From Trichodelitschia bisporula (Eukaryota), in the NCBI GenBank assembly GCA_010356995.1, contig ML996687.1:1489803-1553802 (forward strand): 64,000 nt of DNA, given 5' to 3'. A program made the translations under genes and the position numbers. Below the pieces are notes generated by a model. That model had not been told where the DNA came from. It made no database searches and was given only the letters and a program-made list of their open reading frames with translations. Below are positions 56 to 12,300 of this stretch, in pieces; the first letter of the stretch is position 1; every line of letters starts with the position of its first letter.

Positions 56-589
56 ATGCCTCCGTCGGTGAACATACCCATCGAGGCGCTGACCTCGCGC
101 TTCAACCTGTCGGGCCGCTTCGAGAATGTGCGGTCAACATCCCTGGCGACGCGCTTCGCCAACCTGCGTCCGATCAGCGAGTTCTTCGACTTCAAGCGGT
201 TGTCGAAGCCGCAGAACTTTGGCGAGGCTCAGTCACGCGTCAACTACAACCTCGGATACTTCTCCAGCAACTATGCGGCTGTGTTCGTGATGCTCAGCAT
301 CTACAGCTTGCTGACGAACCTGACGCTGCTGTTTGTCATCTTCCTCGTGGTCGGCGGCATGTGGGGCATCGGAAAACTCGGCGGTCAGGACCTCGACATC
401 ATGGGGTTCCGTGCCACAACCTCGCAGCTCTACACGGGTCTGCTATGCGTCGCCATTCCGCTCACCTTCATCTCCTCACCCTTCACAACCCTGCTGTGGC
501 TCATTGGCGCGAGCGGCGTGACCATCATCGGCCACGCATCCTTCATGGACAAGCCCATCGAGTCAGCTTTTTCCGAGGAGGCGGTCTAG
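56..589 (+). CDS. YIP3: PRA1-family prenylated Rab acceptor (Yip3), intronless, 177 aa
   Basis: Motifs LRPISEFFDFKRLSKP, SRVNYNLGYFSSNY, two long hydrophobic hairpins and C-terminal GHASFMDKPIESAFSEEAV are typical of fungal Yip3/PRA1. TATAAT lies at 2-7. Confidence 0.93.
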   Translation: MPPSVNIPIEALTSRFNLSGRFENVRSTSLATRFANLRPISEFFDFKRLSKPQNFGEAQSRVNYNLGYFSSNYAAVFVMLSIYSLLTNLTLLFVIFLVVGGMWGIGKLGGQDLDIMGFRATTSQLYTGLLCVAIPLTFISSPFTTLLWLIGASGVTIIGHASFMDKPIESAFSEEAV

Positions 590-615
590 GTGGTCGGCCG
601 CGAACTCCACAATAT

Positions 616-1818
616 ATGCCCCAATGGGGAAGACCACCGGGGCGCGCGGGGGGGAGGAGTCGAGAGGAGCGAGAGCGATGGGCTGCGCAGCAGGCCCGGT
701 GGGACGGCGCGCGCTTCGAGGAGGTGACGAGCGAAGACGAAGAGGTGGACCAGGAGGAGATTATGGGGGCGAACGGCGTTCTTTCATTGACTTCCAAGCC
801 GCATTATGTTTCAGACGAGTTATTTTTCAACGACGGCGACTCCAGATACCCGCGCCGTCGCCGCGACCCTCCTCCCGCCGAGGCACAACTCGCCTACGGC
901 GAGTACTACAGTTCGGACGAACACGACGACGACGACCCGCGCAGGAGCAGCGCCGGCCGCCGGAATGACGACCACGCGGCCTTTCTCCGCGCCCGCGCCC
1001 TGCACCGCATCGACCGCGCCAAAGCTCAGGGAAAAGGCATGGTCACACTCACCCACGACGAGCTCGAGGCCCTCCGCGGCGGCGCACCCTCGGCACCTTC
1101 CGCACCCCCAGCACTACCATCCCAGGCCCCAGCACCACCGAGCCCGGCCCGCGCCTCCAGCAGCCGCTCCCGCGAGCGCTCTCGCGAGCCTGTACGCGTC
1201 AAGGGCGCACGACGGCCGAGCCTCCTGGCGCCAGCTAAGACGCGCAGTAGCAAGACCGCACCGACGAGCAAGCGCAAGGACTCGGGCGAGAGCGCGCACT
1301 CGGCGTCGGCGCCTTCGAGAGCGCTGACCCCCGTGCAGCCGGCGTATTCTGCGCGGCGGCCTATTGGGTCGGCAGACTCGTCGCCGCGGGCGAGTCGGAT
1401 CCCGTCGGACGCGAGTGCTCGTGCACCTGTGTACCCGTCCCCGCCTGATGTCCGCCCGACATCGAGCAGCTCACGCGCGTCGTCCCGGCCGATTGATTCA
1501 GATTCGGATCATGTTATGCGTGGGAGTCCGGGGGCGTGGCCGGAGCGAGAGTATGCGTATGGCGTGCGGCAGGGGGATGTGGTGTATTCGAGTGTGTACC
1601 GGAGGCCGCCGCCTGCGAACCGCGCGCCGCATTCGGATCCTATCATCGGTGGGAGTGGGCTGGCGAATGAGTATGAGGTTAGTAGCTTTGGGTCGGAGGA
1701 TGGGTCGGATAAGCAAGGGCGTGTGCGGGAGGACAAGACGTCTGGTGGTGATAAAAGCAAGAGACGCGAGCGGGAACGGGAGCGCGACGTGCCCAAAGCA
1801 AGACGACGGCGGCATTGA
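616..1818 (+). CDS. Disordered Arg/Ser/Pro-rich protein (~400 aa) starting 26 nt after the YIP3 stop
   Basis: Long ORF with ATG at 616 (another in-frame ATG at 445). Short helical core AAFLRARALHRIDRAKAQGKGMVTLTHDELEAL and basic NLS-like C-terminus. Possible in-frame intron 724-798 (GTGACG...TTGAC...AAG). Confidence 0.75.
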   Translation: MPQWGRPPGRAGGRSREERERWAAQQARWDGARFEEVTSEDEEVDQEEIMGANGVLSLTSKPHYVSDELFFNDGDSRYPRRRRDPPPAEAQLAYGEYYSSDEHDDDDPRRSSAGRRNDDHAAFLRARALHRIDRAKAQGKGMVTLTHDELEALRGGAPSAPSAPPALPSQAPAPPSPARASSSRSRERSREPVRVKGARRPSLLAPAKTRSSKTAPTSKRKDSGESAHSASAPSRALTPVQPAYSARRPIGSADSSPRASRIPSDASARAPVYPSPPDVRPTSSSSRASSRPIDSDSDHVMRGSPGAWPEREYAYGVRQGDVVYSSVYRRPPPANRAPHSDPIIGGSGLANEYEVSSFGSEDGSDKQGRVREDKTSGGDKSKRRERERERDVPKARRRRH

Positions 1819-2818
1819 CAAGACAATGGGATCTGGAATTGCAGGGTTTGGTGTAGTCCTTTTTACTCTCTACTGTGCCTGGGAATAGACTTGTGTGCTT
1901 CTTCTTCTCCCTTTTCTGGTGGATAGGAGCAATGCATCCGCTAGTATTTCTTTATTCTTCTTTGTTCTAGTGTATAAAAAGCGTGGTGTTGTACGGGATC
2001 CTGTGCGTTTCCTGTGCGTCTCCCACTCTGCATGCTCGTCTCATCTTGTGTCTGTTGGCGTAAGGGGGTTCTAGCGTGCTGCCGGCTCCCCAGCCACCGG
2101 ATATATTGACTACACTCTTCGCCTTGTACAGCCTTTCAGATGCTGCAAGGCGCATGGCATGCTCTTCTGCAGTGAGAACAAGAATGCAGAGTCTGCGAAT
2201 CTTATGAGCTGGCTACTGTACCTGTACCTACACAAGCAGTCTGTTCAGTTAATGTGTACATCCGTAGTTGCAAGCAAAGTGGTGATGTTTGTGCCGCGCG
2301 GGTGCCGCAGCGCCCGATACCAGCCTCTGTGGCTTGATGGTGCGGTGTCTTTCCCTCGTGGCTCGTGTTGCGCTTCCTCCCTACTACGCACACTCCTCTT
2401 CCTCTCTACTCTCTCCACTCCACTCCCCTCCACCTCCACTCCACCTCCGCTGTCTCGTCCTCCCACCACCCACAACACCAACGACCAACATCACGCAGCT
2501 CCCCATTCACCCCACTCTGCATTCATCACATTCTCTCTCCATCACCACGCTCTCTCTCTTGCAGCTTTGTACCTCCTTCCCTCTTTAACCCCTCCAAACA
2601 CACCCCGCGTACATACCAAGACACAAACCCGGCGACCCGCCATCCCGCAGGACCAGCTGCACCGCCCATCTCCGCACCGCAACCCCGCACCATCACCATC
2701 GCGCCCCCATTCACAATCTCGCCCACCCCAAAAACCTTCCTTCGCCCATCATTCTCCACCGGCGCATTGTGCCAACCATAGCGTCTACCCCCAACCTCCC
2801 CCCCCAACCCGTCGCGCA

Positions 2819-3996
2819 ATGCCCTCTATAGATCGTGAGTCCCTAGCTCCCTCCCGGAGGATATGCCCTGTCCCACCAAGAAGCACCCGCTAAACTACCC
2901 CTCAAACAGTCCCCCCCGAGGTGTCAGCCTCCTATGCCGCCATCATAGACGGCATCCTCGCGCGCAGCGACCTGAACACCATCTCCGCAAAAGCGATCCG
3001 CAAGGGTCTGCAGGCCGAAGTGAACTATGACATCTCACACCAGAAGGCATGCGCCCGCCTGCCCCTCATTATCTCTTCCCTCTCTCCCCACACTAACACC
3101 CCCAAAAGGAAGCCGTCACCGCCCTCATAATGGCGCGCTTCGACAAATTCACCGAAGAAAACCCTCCCTCGCCCGCCGACGTCAAACCCGACCCCGAGCC
3201 CCACACCAACGGCACCGCTAGCACAAGCAGCAAGGACAAGAAGCGCAGCGCCAGCCCCTCGGCCTCGAGCCTGACGAGCCTGGATGCCGCCGCGCCGCCG
3301 CCGGCCAAGCGGGTTAAGAACAACGCCGGGGAGGCCAAGACGGCGGGCAAGGGTGCGGGTAAGGGTGCTGGCAAGGGCACGGGCAAGGCTTCGAAGGCTA
3401 CGTCGCTGGAGGATGCGGACGCGGCGTATGCGGCCCGGCTTCAGGCCGAGGAGAACTCGCGTGCGAATGGCCGGGCGACGCGCGCGGGGCGCAAGGGGGC
3501 GCAGAGCGGGAAGCCGGTGAAGAAGGAGAAGCGGAAGGCGAAGAAGAGTAAGACGAGGGTGGATAGTGGGGATGAGAGTGGGAGTGGGGCGGAGGGGGGG
3601 GAGAAGAAGAAGGAGGTTAAGCGGACGGGCGGGTTTCATGTGAGTTGCTCTTTTTTTTTGGGTATGCTGTGTGGGATGGACGGGGGCTGATGAGAGCAGA
3701 AACCGATGAATCTCTCGCCGCAGCTGTCGGCGCTGTTGGGTGGGGAGACACAGCTGTCGCGGCCGCAGACGGTCAAGAAGATCTGGGAGTACATTCGCGC
3801 GAACGACCTCCAGGATCCGGCAGATAAGCGGCAGATTCGGTGCGACGACGCGATGCGGACTGTGTTTCGCTCCGATCGCGTGCACATGTTTACGATGAAT
3901 AAGATTCTGAACAAGAATCTGTTTGCCCCGGAAGAGATTGCGGGTGGGGAGGTGCAGCCTAAGGTGGAGGCGAAGGTGGAGGAGGAGGATGATTAG
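2819..3996 (+). CDS. DEK-C plus SWIB/MDM2 domain protein (Uaf30/Tri1-like)
   Basis: Exons 2819-2834, 2910-3046, 3109-3639, 3700-3996 join in frame; intron 2 is GC-AG. N-terminal IIDGILARSDLNTISAKAIRKGLQ (DEK-C) and C-terminal LSRPQTVKKIWEYIRANDLQDPADKRQIRCD (SWIB). Confidence 0.9.
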
Positions 3997-4732
3997 GGAA
4001 GCGGGGAGTTGAGAATGCGTCTTTTTGCGTGCATGGCGGGTGTATTATGGTTTTCTTTGTATGTGTGTGCGCGTGGCCCTATGTGTATTTGCGGGCGGGT
4101 TCATGGGCGGCGTTTTTTGTCTTAGGGATGGCATAGGAGGGGATGATTCAGATGAAGTGGATACTCGTGTGGGGGACGAGGCGAGGCGTTGGATGCGCGA
4201 GGATGCGCGGCGGATGCTGTGGATGTGTGTATGCTGGACTACTAGATGAGGCATAATGGCGATGGGGTGATCTTCATTTTTTGACTTATGCTTGACTGCT
4301 GTGAAGCGGAGGTGGATGTGGAAAGGGACCGCAGAGCTGATAGGGAGTGGTGTTGAGCAGTCCATTGCCAGCAACCCACGTTTCCTACTCTCTGCCTCCT
4401 CCTCCGGCGCATATACACCGATCCTGAACATGGCCATTGCCAAAGACACGAGATGCAGCACTCTCAGCCTTTTATGGGTCATGTTGTCAGATCTCCGCCA
4501 GCGGAGCGGAGCGCGACATCACCCCCGGGGGCTTGGCAAGCGTACCCCGGCCGAAAAAAAGTTCGAGATCCTCGACCTCCACCATTCCTACCATCATCGC
4601 CATACCTTTCTCTCTGAACCACCACCGCAAACGCCACAAAGCACACTTCTCCTCTCCCATTCGCCTCTCCATCTGATACTACAGCCGCCCATCACTCCCA
4701 CCCCAACATCCCATTAAACCAAAAAGACGACC

Positions 4733-5627: not shown

Positions 5628-8157
5628 CTACATCACCAAACCCAGCCCAACCATCCGCACAGCCAGGGCTACATATCCCCACCCCCCACCAGCCCGCAAC
5701 CTCACCCCGGCATTCTTCGCCTTGCCCGCGTTCGCGTTCGCGCCGCTCACACTTGTCCCAGGGCCGGATCCGGATCGGGCGCCGGAGTCAGAGTCGGGCC
5801 CGAACCAAGGTAGCATGCCGGCCGGGTCGTAGGAGGGCCTGCCCTGCGGGTCCGGCTCCTTGCCCACGCGGCTCGATGCGCTGGGGCGCGCGCTGCTGGA
5901 TGGACTGCCCGGTTTGCCATTCGGGCTTCCGTCGGCACTTCCGCTTCCTGAACCTGAACCCGGACCAGAGCCCGAATCGGAACCACCAGAGCCCGAACCA
6001 GAGGTCGAACCAGAGCCCGAACCAGGACCAGAACCCGAGCCCGAACCCGCCACAGCGCCACCATCTTCCCCCCACGCATCACTAGGCGGCGCATACCCCC
6101 CCAGCGCGCCCACCCACGCGGCGCCTCCACCACCATTCCCATCAAAGATCCGCGCCGCCAGTCCCCCTTCTCCAGCCGCAACGAGCATATCCCGCGTAAC
6201 CCGGACCTGGCCCCCCGCGCCCGCGCCCGCACCCGCGCCCGCCTTCAAACCCAGCGCCGCGTACGGAACCACGGCCTCCAGCCCGCCTACCAGCACGGCG
6301 ATCCCGTCGGCCTTCGCGCTGAGCAGCACGCCGTTGCGGGCGATGCTTTCGCCGGGGGGCAGGACGAGGGTGTCGGCGGACGGAGGGACGTTTGCGGCGT
6401 TGTCGGCAGCGTTGCCCGCGGCTCCGCTGCCGGCTGCGCTGCCCGAGTTTAGGAGAGGGCTGGGTGGGTTGGCTGCCGGCGCTGCTGGCGCTCCCGTCGC
6501 CGCTGTCAGGCCGGTAGCCACTGACCCGGGTCTTGCAGCCGCCGCCGGCGGACCGGCCTCTGGTCCCCCGCGCTCGCCCCGGCCTGCAGCAACACCTGGA
6601 ACCACCGTCGGCGCGGGCAAACTGCTCACCCCGGTCGCCGCCGTATACACAATCGGCGGATCAAGAAGCCTGAACCTCGGATCCCACTGACACCCCTTCC
6701 ACTCCTCATTCACATCCCCAAAATCCAGCCCCGGGATCGCAAGCGCAAACTGATAATAATCCGCATACAACGCACTCTGCATAACCTCATCATTGACACT
6801 ATTCGCGTGCGGACCGTAGTGCACAAACTGCATATTGCGCACGGAGTATATAAACCCCCAGACCGCGTCGTCGGGTGCCCGTGGCCCGGCGTTGTCACCG
6901 TCGTCCCACGCGGCATTGAGTGCGCTGAAGGGAATGGGTGCGGACAGGTCGGCGTAGTTGAGCGCGGCGGTGGCGCCGCCGAAACGGAAGGTGCTGATGG
7001 CGGAAGAGGGGAGCGTGAGCAGGATGGAATCGCTCCAGCCGAGATCCTTGCTGGAACCGGGCCCGTACCAACTCTCGGCTTCCAGACGCGTGAGGAAGAC
7101 GTAAGCCTTATCGGCGTAGAGCGTTGTGCCGTTCCCCACGACGGTGGATCCGACGAGAGATGATGTGGCGGGCGCGGGGGTTATCTGGGCGCCGGAAGGC
7201 TGGGTAGGAGTGGGAGTTGGGTCCGCGGCGCACATGTCCCGGGACACGCCTGGTGCGCCGAAGTGCCATAGATTCGCCTGCCACCCGCTGACGTAGCACC
7301 CGCCCTTGGTGCGTTGCTCATACACCTCGCACCAGGACGGCTCGGCGCCCGCGCGGGCGCTGTAATACTGCTCCCACTCGGAGGCGGAAGCGCGGACGTC
7401 GGCTGCGGCGGAGGGGATGACGCAGTCCTTCTTGGGCTGACGGGACACGCGCAGGATGCTGGTCACTTCGGCCGGGATATGCGTGGTGGCGGAAGAGCGC
7501 AGGTGTCCGGTGAAGTAGGTGACGGACCCGCAGGCGACGGAGGTGCTGAATGGGGAGGGGATCCACATTGTTGTTGTGTAGTAGCAGTTGGTCGTGGGTT
7601 TGAGGTACTGCAAAGGGGAGGTTGTGCCTTCGCAGGGCGGGTATGGGGGCGCGTGCGGGCCCATGGTTGTGTGTGGGATGGGATATATGTCGGCGTAGCA
7701 GGAGGTGGAGGCTATTGCTGGGTCCGGGAGCGGGCCTGGCGTGTAGTAGAGCTTGCCGGCGGGGTCGGTCGCGGCGGGCCACTGCGCGCAGGTTAGCGAG
7801 GAGCCGTCGGTGTTGTAGTAGCAGCAGTTTGCAGAGGTGGAGAATTGGATGGACCGTGGGATGGTGTGTAGGTCGCCTGGGTCGTCGTCTGGGGGTGTTA
7901 GTGGGTTTGAAGGGAGAACAGCTGGAGAACGTGCCGGAGAAGGGATCCACGGGATCTATCGGGATGGAGGAGTTTGTGGCATGGCTGATGTCTGTATGGT
8001 TATGTACGAGGACGATCCGCTGCACTTGGCGGCGGAGGTGGTGAGCCCAACGTTGTGCGGGATGAACGGCGGGGCGTCCGTCACTCATCGACAGTGACGG
8101 CCCTGCGTACGTAGCAGCCAGCCACCAGAATGCGACGAAAACGCGCGGTGGAGACAT
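5628..8157 (-). CDS. Secreted, probably GPI-anchored cell-surface protein of unknown function (~827 aa)
   Basis: Signal peptide MSPPRVFVAFWWLAATYA. A GC-AG intron at 7889-7934 joins exon 1 in frame to ORF 5628-7664. Cys-rich N-terminal region, LNYADL..P.P and W.GC...DPP motifs, Gly/Ser linker, hydrophobic C-terminus. Confidence 0.72.
5935..6050 (-). repeat. Coding Gly-Ser (GSGSGPGSGSGS) low-complexity repeat
   Basis: Degenerate 6-nt units (gaaccc/gagccc/gaacca on +) inside the GPI protein. Confidence 0.7.
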
Positions 8158-9302
8158 CGTGGGCGTGTTCGTGGCCGAGTTGGTGTTGAAGCTCGAGCAT
8201 CGCCGACGACGTTATCAGTGCAAACCAGGCACAGGGGAAAAGCCCACGCCGCAGCGTGGTGTACTTTATCCCACATCCATGTGTAGGGGATCGAATCCTT
8301 CCCATTGCGCGTTGGCCCCATCGTATATTATATTGCCCTCATCGCCGTTCCCGGTGGGCGAGAGCTAGGGCTGGTACGCTGCGGATCCATGCGCACATCG
8401 ACTTTGGCTACTGGCATTGGAGGAGTGGCGAGAGGACCGAACTATTGGCATAAATAGGCCTCCATGGGGAAATTGTATTAATAGTGAGCGTTATTATGCT
8501 CGTACGTCTAGGGATGTGAGGGCTCGCCATTTATAGGCATTTCCTATGTCAACAAGTGATATTGGTGGTATTGACATCGACTGAAGAATGACGTCGAGAT
8601 CGTAGGATTTCTGCACATTCGCCCTTCGCAGTCAGAAAGGAGAGTCGACGAAGTGAGTATGATTTGGAGCAATATGATACCCGGGTTATACTGGGGATGT
8701 TGAGAGTATGTAGTCGCGATGTCGTGACGTGACGTCTCGCTCGCGGGCTTGGCTGCCCAACCTCGTGGCAGGATGTGAGGCGATAAGATCTCTTGGGGGT
8801 CACATGTCTATGGTGATACAACGCCATACTCGCCCTGACACGGATTACTTGCAGCTTTTTCATCCCACTGCGCTCTTTCATCAAATTCGCTCTCGGCTAG
8901 GGACTAATACACAAAGAGGCCGAGGGAACTGTGGGAGGGAAGCAACTGGCTCGATTCTCCAGTTCTAATGGGAAATGAAGCGAAGGAGATGGCTAAGCTG
9001 CAGCATGGATGGTACCCGGCGCTGGCCTCTGACCACAAATTTCTTCTTCTTCATACTGACTGTGATTTGGAAGCTGAAGCTTGCAGCCTGTTCCACCTTC
9101 AATGCCGCCGAGTTTTCAGAACAAAAAGATCGTGAACGCAAACAATAGACTGGGCCATGAACCCCAACGCCGTACAGCAGCATATCCACGAAGCCAGAAA
9201 AGTGCGACCAAGTCCCCAACACCAAGATACCATAGAGACACGAGCCAAAAGTCATGAACATAGAAAGAAGACAATCCCATCACGCCATGTCACCGTCTTC
9301 TA

Positions 9303-12300
9303 TTATATAAATTCAAATACCCGTCCGTTGCTTCTCCCGAGGACCCATTCCTTGTCTTCTCTTGTGTCCGACGGAACGGAGGAATAAAAGAAACAAACAT
9401 GCCCGTTGGGCACCCGCTCCTGGTGCTCCTGGCACCAGGCTCCGCCAAAATTCAGAACCAGCGAGTGCGTTCTGCTCGGGGTGCACCAGATGTACACGTC
9501 TCTGTCGGGCGTGGTTCTAGGCGTCGTGCGGATGACCCACAGCCCCCTGGTGAGCGACGACTCGGCTCTGATGACGCCGTGCGGTGTGCGGAGGTGCCAG
9601 TACCGAGGGGGCAGAGTGTGAGCAGGCGTGAAGGGATTTACGTGGATCAAATCCTGGTCTGGATATTGAGGATTGGCCTCGATGACAGGGCGGGTATATA
9701 TTATGCTCATGCGATTTTGTTGGAGAACTATGCGATCGTCATTGTGTTCACGGACTATAATGGCATCGCTATCTTGTCCATTGGCCATGGGAATGCCATC
9801 TTGTACGCGGATGTCAGTCTGCAGCAGCCCCCGAGCGGCTATATCGGTTATCGCACGGTCTAACACCTGGAGATCTGTCTGACGTGGAGCAGGCGTGCGA
9901 AGTCTTTCACGGTCCACGGCCCGTTGCCGACGGCGTTCCTGATTACGAATCTCATCCAGTTGCCGGTCTAACTGAGTCTGGTTCTCAACCAGTTGCTGGC
10001 GTATCCAAAATAGCGACTGAGCCACTTGCCAGTCTATCTGAGCAGGGTTCTCAGCCAGTTGCCGAAAGACTGTCTGATATGGCTGCTCAGCCAGTTGATC
10101 GAGTAACTGCTGACGGTTCTCAACCAGTTGCCGTGCATGGTGCATAGCCAGTTGCACCGTGTATATCTCACGAAGGGTATACCCGTTAGGCCCCCGTCTG
10201 TCCACTGGAATCCCTTGGCTCTCACGGCCAGAGGATCTCCCAAGCGGGAGACCGGTAGAGGTGCTCCCAGCTGGTTCCATCTGACTGTCGAGCTGGCTTT
10301 GATGCGAACGGAACATCTGATTATGGTACCCAGACAGGCGATTTGCATGATCCTCAATCCTCTGTCTTCTACGGTCTACTTGTTCTTGCCAACGGGGTAT
10401 CCGCTGATAAAGACTGAGCCCGTGACGCACCAATTTGTCCAGAGACTGGCCAGACGATGCAGGAGGCGGGAGATTGGTAGAGGTGCTCTCTACAGGGCTC
10501 TCACGTAACTCTTGAAGGAGTGCCTGATTATTATTCGCCGCTAGTCGCCGTTCTAGTATCTGAAGAGAGGTCTCCCAGCTAGGCCCCCTCCTACCCTCGA
10601 ACTGGCCTTCAGGGATTTCTTGCTGCTCAGGGCCAGACCATGCACCAGGCGGCAGATCGGTAGATGTGATCTCAGCAAGTTCCCGCTGGCTGTTGGATTG
10701 GCCTTGACGGTTTCGAGCCAGTTCTCTTTCATGGTTCGCATGCAATTCCCGAAGGAGTCTCGCATGAGGGGTCACAGCCAGTCGCCGACGGAAAATCTGT
10801 CGAACGATCTCCCACCTATCCGCACCGCCGACTTCGGACTGGCCTTCCGAAATTCCTTGGTACACATGGCTAGACGATGCGCCAGGCGGGAAATCGGCAG
10901 AGATGCTCCCAGTAGGTTCCTGCCGGCTATCGGACTGGCTTTCACGGTTCTGAGCTAGCTCTCTTTCATAGTCCGCAAACAGTGCTCGAAGGACTCTCCC
11001 ATGAGGGCACTCAACCAGTCGCCGACGGAATGTCTGTTGAAGGGCCTCCCGCCTACCTTCCCGCCTGCCTTCGGACTGGCCTTCCGGGATTCCTTGCCGC
11101 TGTTGGTCAGACGATGCACCAGGCGGGAGATTGGTAAAATTGAGCTCAGCAGGTTCCAGCCGGCTGTTGGACTGGCTTTCACGGTTCAAAGGCAGTAGTT
11201 GAACGCGTGTCTGACTATGGAGCCAAGCCAGTACCCGGTTTAGCTGGTAATGGTTCTGGGCCAGTTGCTGAATGAGTATGTCATTCGAGTCCTCAGTCGG
11301 TTCCGAGGGTAGCAAGTAACAGTTCAAAGCCAGTTGATTGAATATCTGCTGACGGTTCTCAGCCAGTGGCCTTGTCCGTTCCACGATCCCTTGGTAAAGG
11401 CGTACTTGAGCAAGGGTGAGCTCGCTACGCCCACTACCCTCAGGCTGGCCTTCCGGAAGTTCTTGATGCTCATGACCAGACGATGCAACAGACGGGAGAT
11501 TGGCAGAGTTATTCCCGGTAGGTTCCAGCTGGCTGCCGGTCTGGTTTTCACGGTTCTCAGCCGGTTGCCAAAGAAGTATCTGATTAGGCTCACGTGGTCT
11601 CCAAAGGATCACCCGATTACTGTGCTCAGCCAGCAGCCTTGCCTGGCCCTCAAGCCGTTGCCTTAGTCCGTTCAGAACTTGTTCCTCACGGTGTATCTGC
11701 TGTTCAATGCTGAGCCCGCCGCTCGCCTGACTGAACGCAGGAAAGTCTTCCAGAACAACTCGCTGCTCATGGCCAGACGATGTGCCAGGCGATATAGTGG
11801 TAGAGGTGCTCTCTACGCGGGTTTCAGGCGGTTCCTGAAGGTATGCCTGAATATGGTTTGCAACTAGTTGCCGGTGGGTTATCTGAAGAGCGTTCCCCCC
11901 GCTATCACCCCCGCTGCTCTCGGACTGGCCTTTCGGAATTCCTTGCTGCCCATGGTCGGACGATGTACCGGGCCGGAGATCAGTAGAGGTGTGCTCTGTA
12001 GGTTCCCACAGGTGGTCGTGCTGGGCTTCCAGGATTCTGTTCTGAATTGTCAGGGCTCTTCTTTGGGCTTGCAGAAAATCGCGTTCGGCTTCCAGAAAAA
12101 TGCGCTCGGCTTCCAGGAATCTCTGACGCGCACGGCCGGACGGTGCTCTAGACGGGAGATTGGTAGATGTGCTCTCTACGGGCGTCCGTTGGCTCTCGGA
12201 TTGGCCTGCTGGGGTTCTCTGTTGCTCGAGCAGTGCAACTTCAGGGTCCTGCTCGGGGTGCACCGATTCCAGAGGCGGAACATCCGTGGAAGAGCTTTCT

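Follow-up and report, generated by a model that had tools for sequence, protein, structure and literature searches.

A YIP3/PRA1 gene of Trichodelitschia bisporula with a probable programmed −1 frameshift of the PaYIP3 type

The PaYIP3 frameshift and related recoding systems

It has been reported by Malagnac et al. (2013, PLoS One 8:e73772; PMC3777964) that the YIP3 gene of Podospora anserina, PaYIP3 (Pa_1_8470), undergoes frameshifting, and the case is summarised in a recoding review of 2016 (PMC5009743). According to the main text of the 2013 paper, the PaYIP3 mRNA carries a 5′ open reading frame (ORF) that resembles YIP3 of yeast, together with a larger 3′ ORF confined to the Pezizomycotina. 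The subject of the present analysis is a YIP3/PRA1 locus at the beginning of a 64,000-nucleotide stretch of DNA from Trichodelitschia bisporula (GCA_010356995.1, contig ML996687.1, positions 1,489,803 to 1,553,802 of the forward strand); the whole of this stretch is called the window, and its first letter is position 1. Judged by its sequence, the locus is very probably a single gene, an orthologue of PaYIP3, that would yield a short YIP3 protein and a long form made by programmed −1 frameshifting. The gene type was already published in 2013 and the window is another orthologue of a known recoding gene; since only one more orthologue is added, it changes nothing in principle. For annotation it is of use, as a known recoding site lets the long form be called correctly.

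For P. anserina, the site of shifting is given as U_UUU_UCC, where tRNA-Ser(IGA) re-pairs with UUC through a G–U pair after the slip; P-site slippage is favoured by the authors, and a stem-loop or pseudoknot begins 2 nt downstream, carries in stem 1 a 3-nt bulge that is conserved, and is stated to show compensatory changes (PMC3777964). The same text reports 12 cDNAs that equal the gene sequence except for an intron in a lengthy 5′ untranslated region (UTR), with the mRNA being neither spliced nor edited at the junction of the two ORFs; an 88-kDa long form tagged with green fluorescent protein was detected in vivo by western blot and microscopy, and a yeast reporter gave a frameshift efficiency of about 1%, an out-of-frame control giving 0.3%. 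Deletion of the gene causes mild growth and fruiting phenotypes that are complemented by the short form, while the long form alone fails, and a role of the long form in regulating or destabilising YIP3 was suggested. The arrangement is described there as kept across the Pezizomycotina except in Ascosphaera and Arthrobotrys, with a +1-frame variant in Capnodiales and Ophiostomatales, and the gene as free of any retroelement signature. Among eukaryotic cellular −1 programmed frameshifts, very few are not derived from retroelements; that of YIP3 is one, and its heptamer and 2-nt spacer are unusual. PEG10/Edr, Ma3 and the pseudoknot of IBV (infectious bronchitis virus) likewise combine a slippery heptamer with a downstream pseudoknot to extend a C-terminus; these and other viral sites have a canonical X_XXY_YYZ heptamer and a spacer of 5–9 nt, and the cellular ones are retroelement-derived, whereas at the YIP3 site the heptamer is non-canonical, with A-site re-pairing via G–U, and the spacer measures 2 nt. 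A short distance from stop codon to AUG on one mRNA is also found in IGG1/IGG6 of Glarea lozoyensis and in the UAAUG of hypovirus CHV1. In both of these the downstream AUG is essential, whereas it is dispensable across the YIP3 3′ ORF family, and in the YIP3 species studied frameshifting links the two products, unlike in IGG1/IGG6 and CHV1.

The locus in the window resembles PaYIP3, as described in the text of PMC3777964, in several respects: its 5′ ORF is PRA1/YIP3, U_UUU_UCC stands close to the end of this ORF with a stop codon soon after, a structure with 3 bulged nucleotides in stem 1 begins 2 nt beyond the site, the 3′ ORF is long, poorly conserved, without a domain and in the −1 frame, and the junction is apparently left unspliced. 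The shift falls at codons 172–173 in the window and at codon 170 in P. anserina, and the long form is predicted at about 587 aa compared with 61.6 kDa in P. anserina. Further differences are that an in-frame AUG follows the stop codon after 26 nt in the lineage of the window, that the coding part of YIP3 is intronless in the window, and that frameshifting was measured for the P. anserina gene, while for the window it is predicted from sequence. The +1-frame variant of Capnodiales and Ophiostomatales shares both ORFs and their linkage with the window; since the 3′ ORF lies in the −1 frame and the UUUUU run is kept, the window belongs to the majority −1 type, unlike that variant.

Shift site and junction in Trichodelitschia bisporula

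The short form is encoded on the + strand at 56–589 by an intronless coding part, taken from the ORF listing and Pfam, of 177 codons ending at TAG 587–589; its product matches PF03208 (PRA1) over residues 33–173 with an E value of 5.6e-43 and 146 bits, the cut-off being 30.1 bits. The 3′ ORF occupies 616–1818 of the same strand in frame −1 relative to YIP3, begins with ATG 616–618, 26 nt 3′ of the YIP3 stop codon, and encodes 400 aa in which a Pfam scan found no family; this extension is basic and rich in Ser, Pro and Arg. An earlier note, made from the letters of the window alone, had given these positions and a further in-frame ATG at 445, and all of them are confirmed. Metagenome contigs were scanned with an alignment of the 3′ ORF: 55 stretches matched and two were confirmed, L001 (YIP3 ORF at 45–578, 3′ ORF ATG at 605) and L002 (YIP3 stop codon ending at 5729, 3′ ORF ATG at 5756). 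The spacing from stop to ATG is 26 nt in both, identical to that of the window, which is beyond chance. L002 appears by eye to have two introns in YIP3 and, because of these, is probably of a different lineage.

The −1 frame of the window is free of stops from nt 10 to 1818, as the note had read it, and the reading itself stands; as a signal, the openness across the whole of YIP3 does not, and it is a chance effect of a high GC content at third codon positions (GC3), against which the note had itself cautioned. GC3 of YIP3 is 0.84, and 1339 of 20,000 synonymous-codon shuffles (6.7%) also lacked a −1 stop. Nor is full openness conserved among the loci: the same frame inside YIP3 holds four stops in L001 and stops also in L002, the last of them lying about 33–35 codons before the 3′ ORF ATG in both. 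What is common to the window, L001 and L002 is a −1 frame open from the shift site onward. This site, U_UUU_UCC at 568–574, is the same at 3/3 loci; in the YIP3 frame it covers Phe172 (UUU, 569–571) and Ser173 (UCC, 572–574), the five Ts of the run 'gct ttt tcc' (566–574) being at 568–572, and the heptamer is that given for P. anserina in the texts of PMC3777964 and PMC5009743. The note had proposed a −1 slip at this very run, which agrees with the mechanism published for the gene family in PMC3777964, with the exact site in the right frame.

A conserved nucleotide block extends over 544–640 of the + strand and covers the shift site, the stop codon, the spacer and the first codons of the 3′ ORF, and of its 97 columns 86 do not vary among the three sequences; the flanks have 71 invariant columns out of 144 upstream and 39 out of 120 downstream. 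Within YIP3, 13 of 15 third codon positions are unchanged in 544–586, compared with 11 of 48 in 400–543. The sequences thus indicate that a strong constraint at the RNA level acts on the YIP3/3′ ORF junction.

A spacer of two bases, GA at 575–576, separates the shift site from stem 1 (577–608), which was found in the minimum-free-energy fold: 577–586 pairs with 596–601 and 605–608, leaving a 3-nt bulge, GAA at 602–604, and the YIP3 stop codon lies within the loop of this stem (587–595). Spacer and stem 1 are the same in L001 and L002 as in the window, all 10 pairs being standard and none varying, and the geometry, with a start 2 nt past the shift site and a 3-nt bulge, agrees with the text of PMC3777964. 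A candidate pseudoknot stem 2 (589–638) would be formed between the loop bases 589–595 (GGUGGUC) and 632–638 (GACCACC), a perfect inverted repeat of 7 nt; one of its pairs becomes G–U in L001 and one is lost there. The assignment of stem 2 is our own and provisional, made from the sequence. In addition, the invariant G-R-P of the motif MPQWGRPP (alignment A1) is encoded by 632–638, the bases able to pair with 589–595; as these codons form the candidate pseudoknot arm, conservation of the motif may be driven by the RNA and not by the protein.

By analogy with P. anserina, the following mechanism can be proposed for T. bisporula, in which slippage is inferred. A single unspliced mRNA would carry the YIP3/PRA1 ORF (56–589) and the overlapping −1-frame ORF; the majority of ribosomes would stop at UAG 587–589 and release the 177-aa membrane protein YIP3, while a minority would slip back by one base at U_UUU_UCC (568–574) and read the −1 frame to 1818. 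The slip would be helped by the bulged stem 2 nt downstream and probably also by a pseudoknot with 632–638. After the slip, the open −1 frame on the + strand (574–1818) comprises 414 codons and a stop, so the long form is expected to have about 587 aa, made of 173 zero-frame residues and 414 −1-frame codons (574–1815), that is, YIP3 followed by a disordered basic tail. The junction would read ...ESAFS-RGGGLGG... in the case of tandem slippage and ...ESAFF-RGGGLGG... when the P-site tRNA-Phe alone slips.

The 3′ ORF belongs to a widespread family. A word-indexed search gave five relatives of 416–439 aa that align over the full length and all begin with MPxWGRP or MPxGGRP, and 253 representatives at E ≤ 1e-3 came from an exhaustive profile search, 122 of them reaching ≤ 1e-10 and 29 reaching ≤ 1e-30; the ten representatives with named sources all come from Pezizomycotina. 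PRA1 stands in front of the 3′ ORF match in 11 of 17 long or N-terminally extended models, with no family found by Pfam in the other six, and these eleven models are the two ORFs fused by annotators. Conservation of the 3′ ORF and its linkage to YIP3, which the earlier note had put forward as a test, are thus seen in the 253 representatives, in the 11 PRA1 fusions and in the identical spacing at 2/2 metagenome loci. Fusion models occur in Acarospora, Vezdaea, Pyrenula, Cirrosporium, Recurvomyces, Cladosporium and Chaetomium globosum, and stand-alone models of the 3′ ORF in Aulographum, Eremomyces and Pycnora; the fusion model of Chaetomium globosum, which like Podospora is a member of the Sordariales, matches the ORF of the window with a BLASTP E value of 9e-05, and the alignment of the Cirrosporium fusion model runs through the −1-frame peptide at E 8e-12. 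The peptide ahead of the 3′ ORF in extended models, (E/Y/C)(C/S)FFRGGGLGGRPRTP, is the −1-frame reading of the YIP3 end, the stop codon and the spacer; FFRGGGLGGRPRTP is present in 8 relatives, and the corresponding reading of the window is VSFFRGGGLGGRPRTPQY-MPQWGRPP. In the models of Recurvomyces and Cladosporium, which are of the Capnodiales type, a +1-frame peptide precedes the tail, in agreement with what PMC3777964 says of that order.

RNA evidence was obtained from two sequence runs, X1 and X2, that hold the stretch. Their contigs were judged to be RNA-derived because three introns of the next gene are missing from them. A collinear transcribed stretch covers 1–1998 of the + strand and extends past the 5′ end of the window; over 1–1998 the contigs contain neither joints nor inserted or deleted letters, rare variants being apt to drop out of contigs. 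In X2 the locus is covered by contigs 1–637 (depth 893) and 608–1998 (depth 765), with no cover in the bins 2011–2412. Their 30-nt overlap at 608–637 adjoins a low-depth contig with one variant letter, and the interruption looks like an assembly break and not an RNA end. The contig over 1–637 is 2768 nt long and so reaches about 2.1 kb beyond the 5′ end of the window; it represents either a very long YIP3 leader or a merger with a neighbouring transcript.

Several points weigh against a frameshift gene at this locus. The heptamer is non-canonical and the efficiency measured for it in yeast is only 1% (PMC3777964); an AUG heads the 3′ ORF in this lineage and offers a possible second route to the tail protein. 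Frameshifting in T. bisporula is predicted here from sequence and RNA contigs, and the contig cover, although compatible with one unspliced and unedited transcript, cannot prove a single molecule spanning both ORFs. The fold of 540–660 is no more stable than that of shuffled sequences (z 0.26; 113 of 200 shuffles at least as stable), and among 17 pairs, with 98% of cells paired, none changes on both sides in the three near-identical sequences, for which 500 of 500 covariation shuffles equalled the observed values. Since three such sequences show no covariation, support for the RNA structure comes here from conservation and from the compensatory changes stated in the text of PMC3777964 only.

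The AUG at 616 and alternative routes to the tail

AUG 616 is most simply read as an internal Met codon of the long form. At the corresponding site in 154 relatives, 53 start with Met, 14 have another residue and 87 are unreadable (a later start, a fragment, or a model fused across the site), which leaves 67 readable. In the 14 non-Met relatives, five models starting with V and nine internal cases, the residue is V, L, T, S or A; the nine extended models read the −1-frame peptide straight into the 3′ ORF with L, V, S, T or A replacing Met, and the Chaetomium (Sordariales) model has Ala at this position. It can be seen from the 67 readable relatives, 53 with Met versus 14 without, that the downstream start codon is not conserved across the family, and even this share of Met is an overestimate because gene callers start there only when an ATG is present and otherwise at a later Met. 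The initiation context is likewise not conserved in the window, L001 and L002: the ATG is preceded by ATA, CAC and CTC, with T, A and T for the −3 base at the three loci, and these three bases are the sole run of consecutive variable columns in a 75-nt block whose other columns are almost all invariant. As AUG 616 is not universal, reinitiation is not required; an AUG that is common but dispensable, together with a −1 frame kept open from the T run, points to a fusion made in translation.

The rival most worth weighing is that of a dicistronic mRNA, which was the headline of the earlier note. Ribosomes would terminate at UAG 587–589 and reinitiate at AUG 616 to produce a free 400-aa protein, replacing the fusion or beside it, and the conserved block would then be a reinitiation element; we regard this as unlikely. 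It would account for an AUG placed exactly 26 nt past the stop at 3/3 loci and for the Met start in 53 of the 154 relatives; short intergenic sequences can support fungal reinitiation according to the text on IGG6 (PMC10352335), and AUG, ATG, methionine and initiation go unmentioned in the main text of PMC3777964. Set against this are at least 14 relatives in which V, L, T, S or A takes the place of Met, the count of Met starts being inflated, the variable bases before the ATG, including the −3 base, and seven other AUGs between the YIP3 start and 616, by which leaky scanning to AUG 616 is ruled out. Reinitiation after an ORF of 177 codons is, moreover, normally inefficient. The dicistronic reading is thus unnecessary and weakly contradicted by the Met replacements and the variable context. 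No dicistronic YIP3 case was found among the titles that searches on bicistronic or polycistronic mRNAs and reinitiation returned, and YIP3 and PRA1 are not mentioned in the passages on IGG6 (PMC10352335). The YIP3-linked dicistronic unit that the earlier note mentioned as reported in filamentous ascomycetes is most likely the gene of PMC3777964; the text of that paper deals with frameshifting and not with dicistronic translation. It is also conceivable, though improbable, that in lineages with the AUG the tail is made in two ways from one mRNA, as a −1 fusion and as a free 400-aa protein by reinitiation. If this were true, the same RNA structure would serve recoding and reinitiation, with the UAG sitting in the pseudoknot loop; the lineages concerned are the window, L001, L002 and at least 53 relatives, and such a dual route is not considered in the main text of PMC3777964.

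Two further explanations place the event in transcription or RNA processing. Two overlapping transcripts, with a promoter and start for the 3′ ORF inside the YIP3 coding sequence and a YIP3 mRNA ending inside the 3′ ORF, would fit the end of the X1 contig at 605 and the depth sums that vary along the locus, although contigs cannot show transcript ends; the 30-nt X2 overlap resembles an assembly break, the depths on its two sides are similar (893 and 765), a single mRNA runs across both ORFs in P. anserina (text of PMC3777964), and relatives lacking the Met would be left with no start codon, so that this is a very unlikely arrangement. The least credible possibility, which we give hardly any weight, is that the fusion arises from splicing between 584 and 798, or from RNA polymerase slipping on the T5 run. 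The T run is present at 568–572, and the splice, which the earlier note had suggested, would indeed keep the frame, its arithmetic being correct; five Ts are short for transcriptional slippage, and the contigs, from which rare variants drop out, have no joints in 1–2000 and no indels, while these runs show the next gene with three introns spliced out. The splice would also delete residues 1–61 of the 3′ ORF, including the invariant M1–R10 and E18–W22, and the 12 P. anserina cDNAs are unspliced apart from the 5′ UTR intron (text of PMC3777964). The splice from 584 to 798 was therefore rejected on the missing RNA joint, the loss of invariant tail residues and the unspliced cDNAs. Programmed −1 frameshifting thus remains the preferred explanation of the locus.

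Public gene models and neighbouring sequences

Public models of the family are inconsistent (P0002, P0010, P0014, P0021, P0059, P0060, P0090, P0093 and P0113): the tail appears as a separate hypothetical protein with an MPxWGRP start, truncated to a later Met, or fused through differing invented introns, and the frameshift is represented in none of these listed models. Meanwhile, the 656-aa representative P0148 contains three tandem junction peptides, AFFQGGGIAGRPR..., PAFFRGGGLLGVAGRPR... and PAFFRGGGLAGRPR..., which suggest that the frameshift cassette was triplicated in tandem in the genome concerned.

The next gene of the window, at 2499–4000 on the + strand, is expressed and spliced, and its exon translation is rich in Lys, Ala and Ser; the contig joints 2834/2910, 3043/3106 and 3639/3700 correspond to skipped introns at 2835–2909 (GT..AG), 3044–3105 (ends ambiguous by 4 nt) and 3640–3699 (GT..AG). 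In L002, the sequence downstream of the YIP3 locus encodes on the opposite strand (7777–9351, − strand) a 524-aa protein that is WD-repeat-like by eye. Because the neighbour in the window differs from that of L002 and lies on the + strand, synteny past the YIP3 unit is not kept. Further along the window, a stop-free frame of 775 codons is present at 5628–7955 on the − strand, with long low-complexity runs rich in Gly, Ser and Ala.

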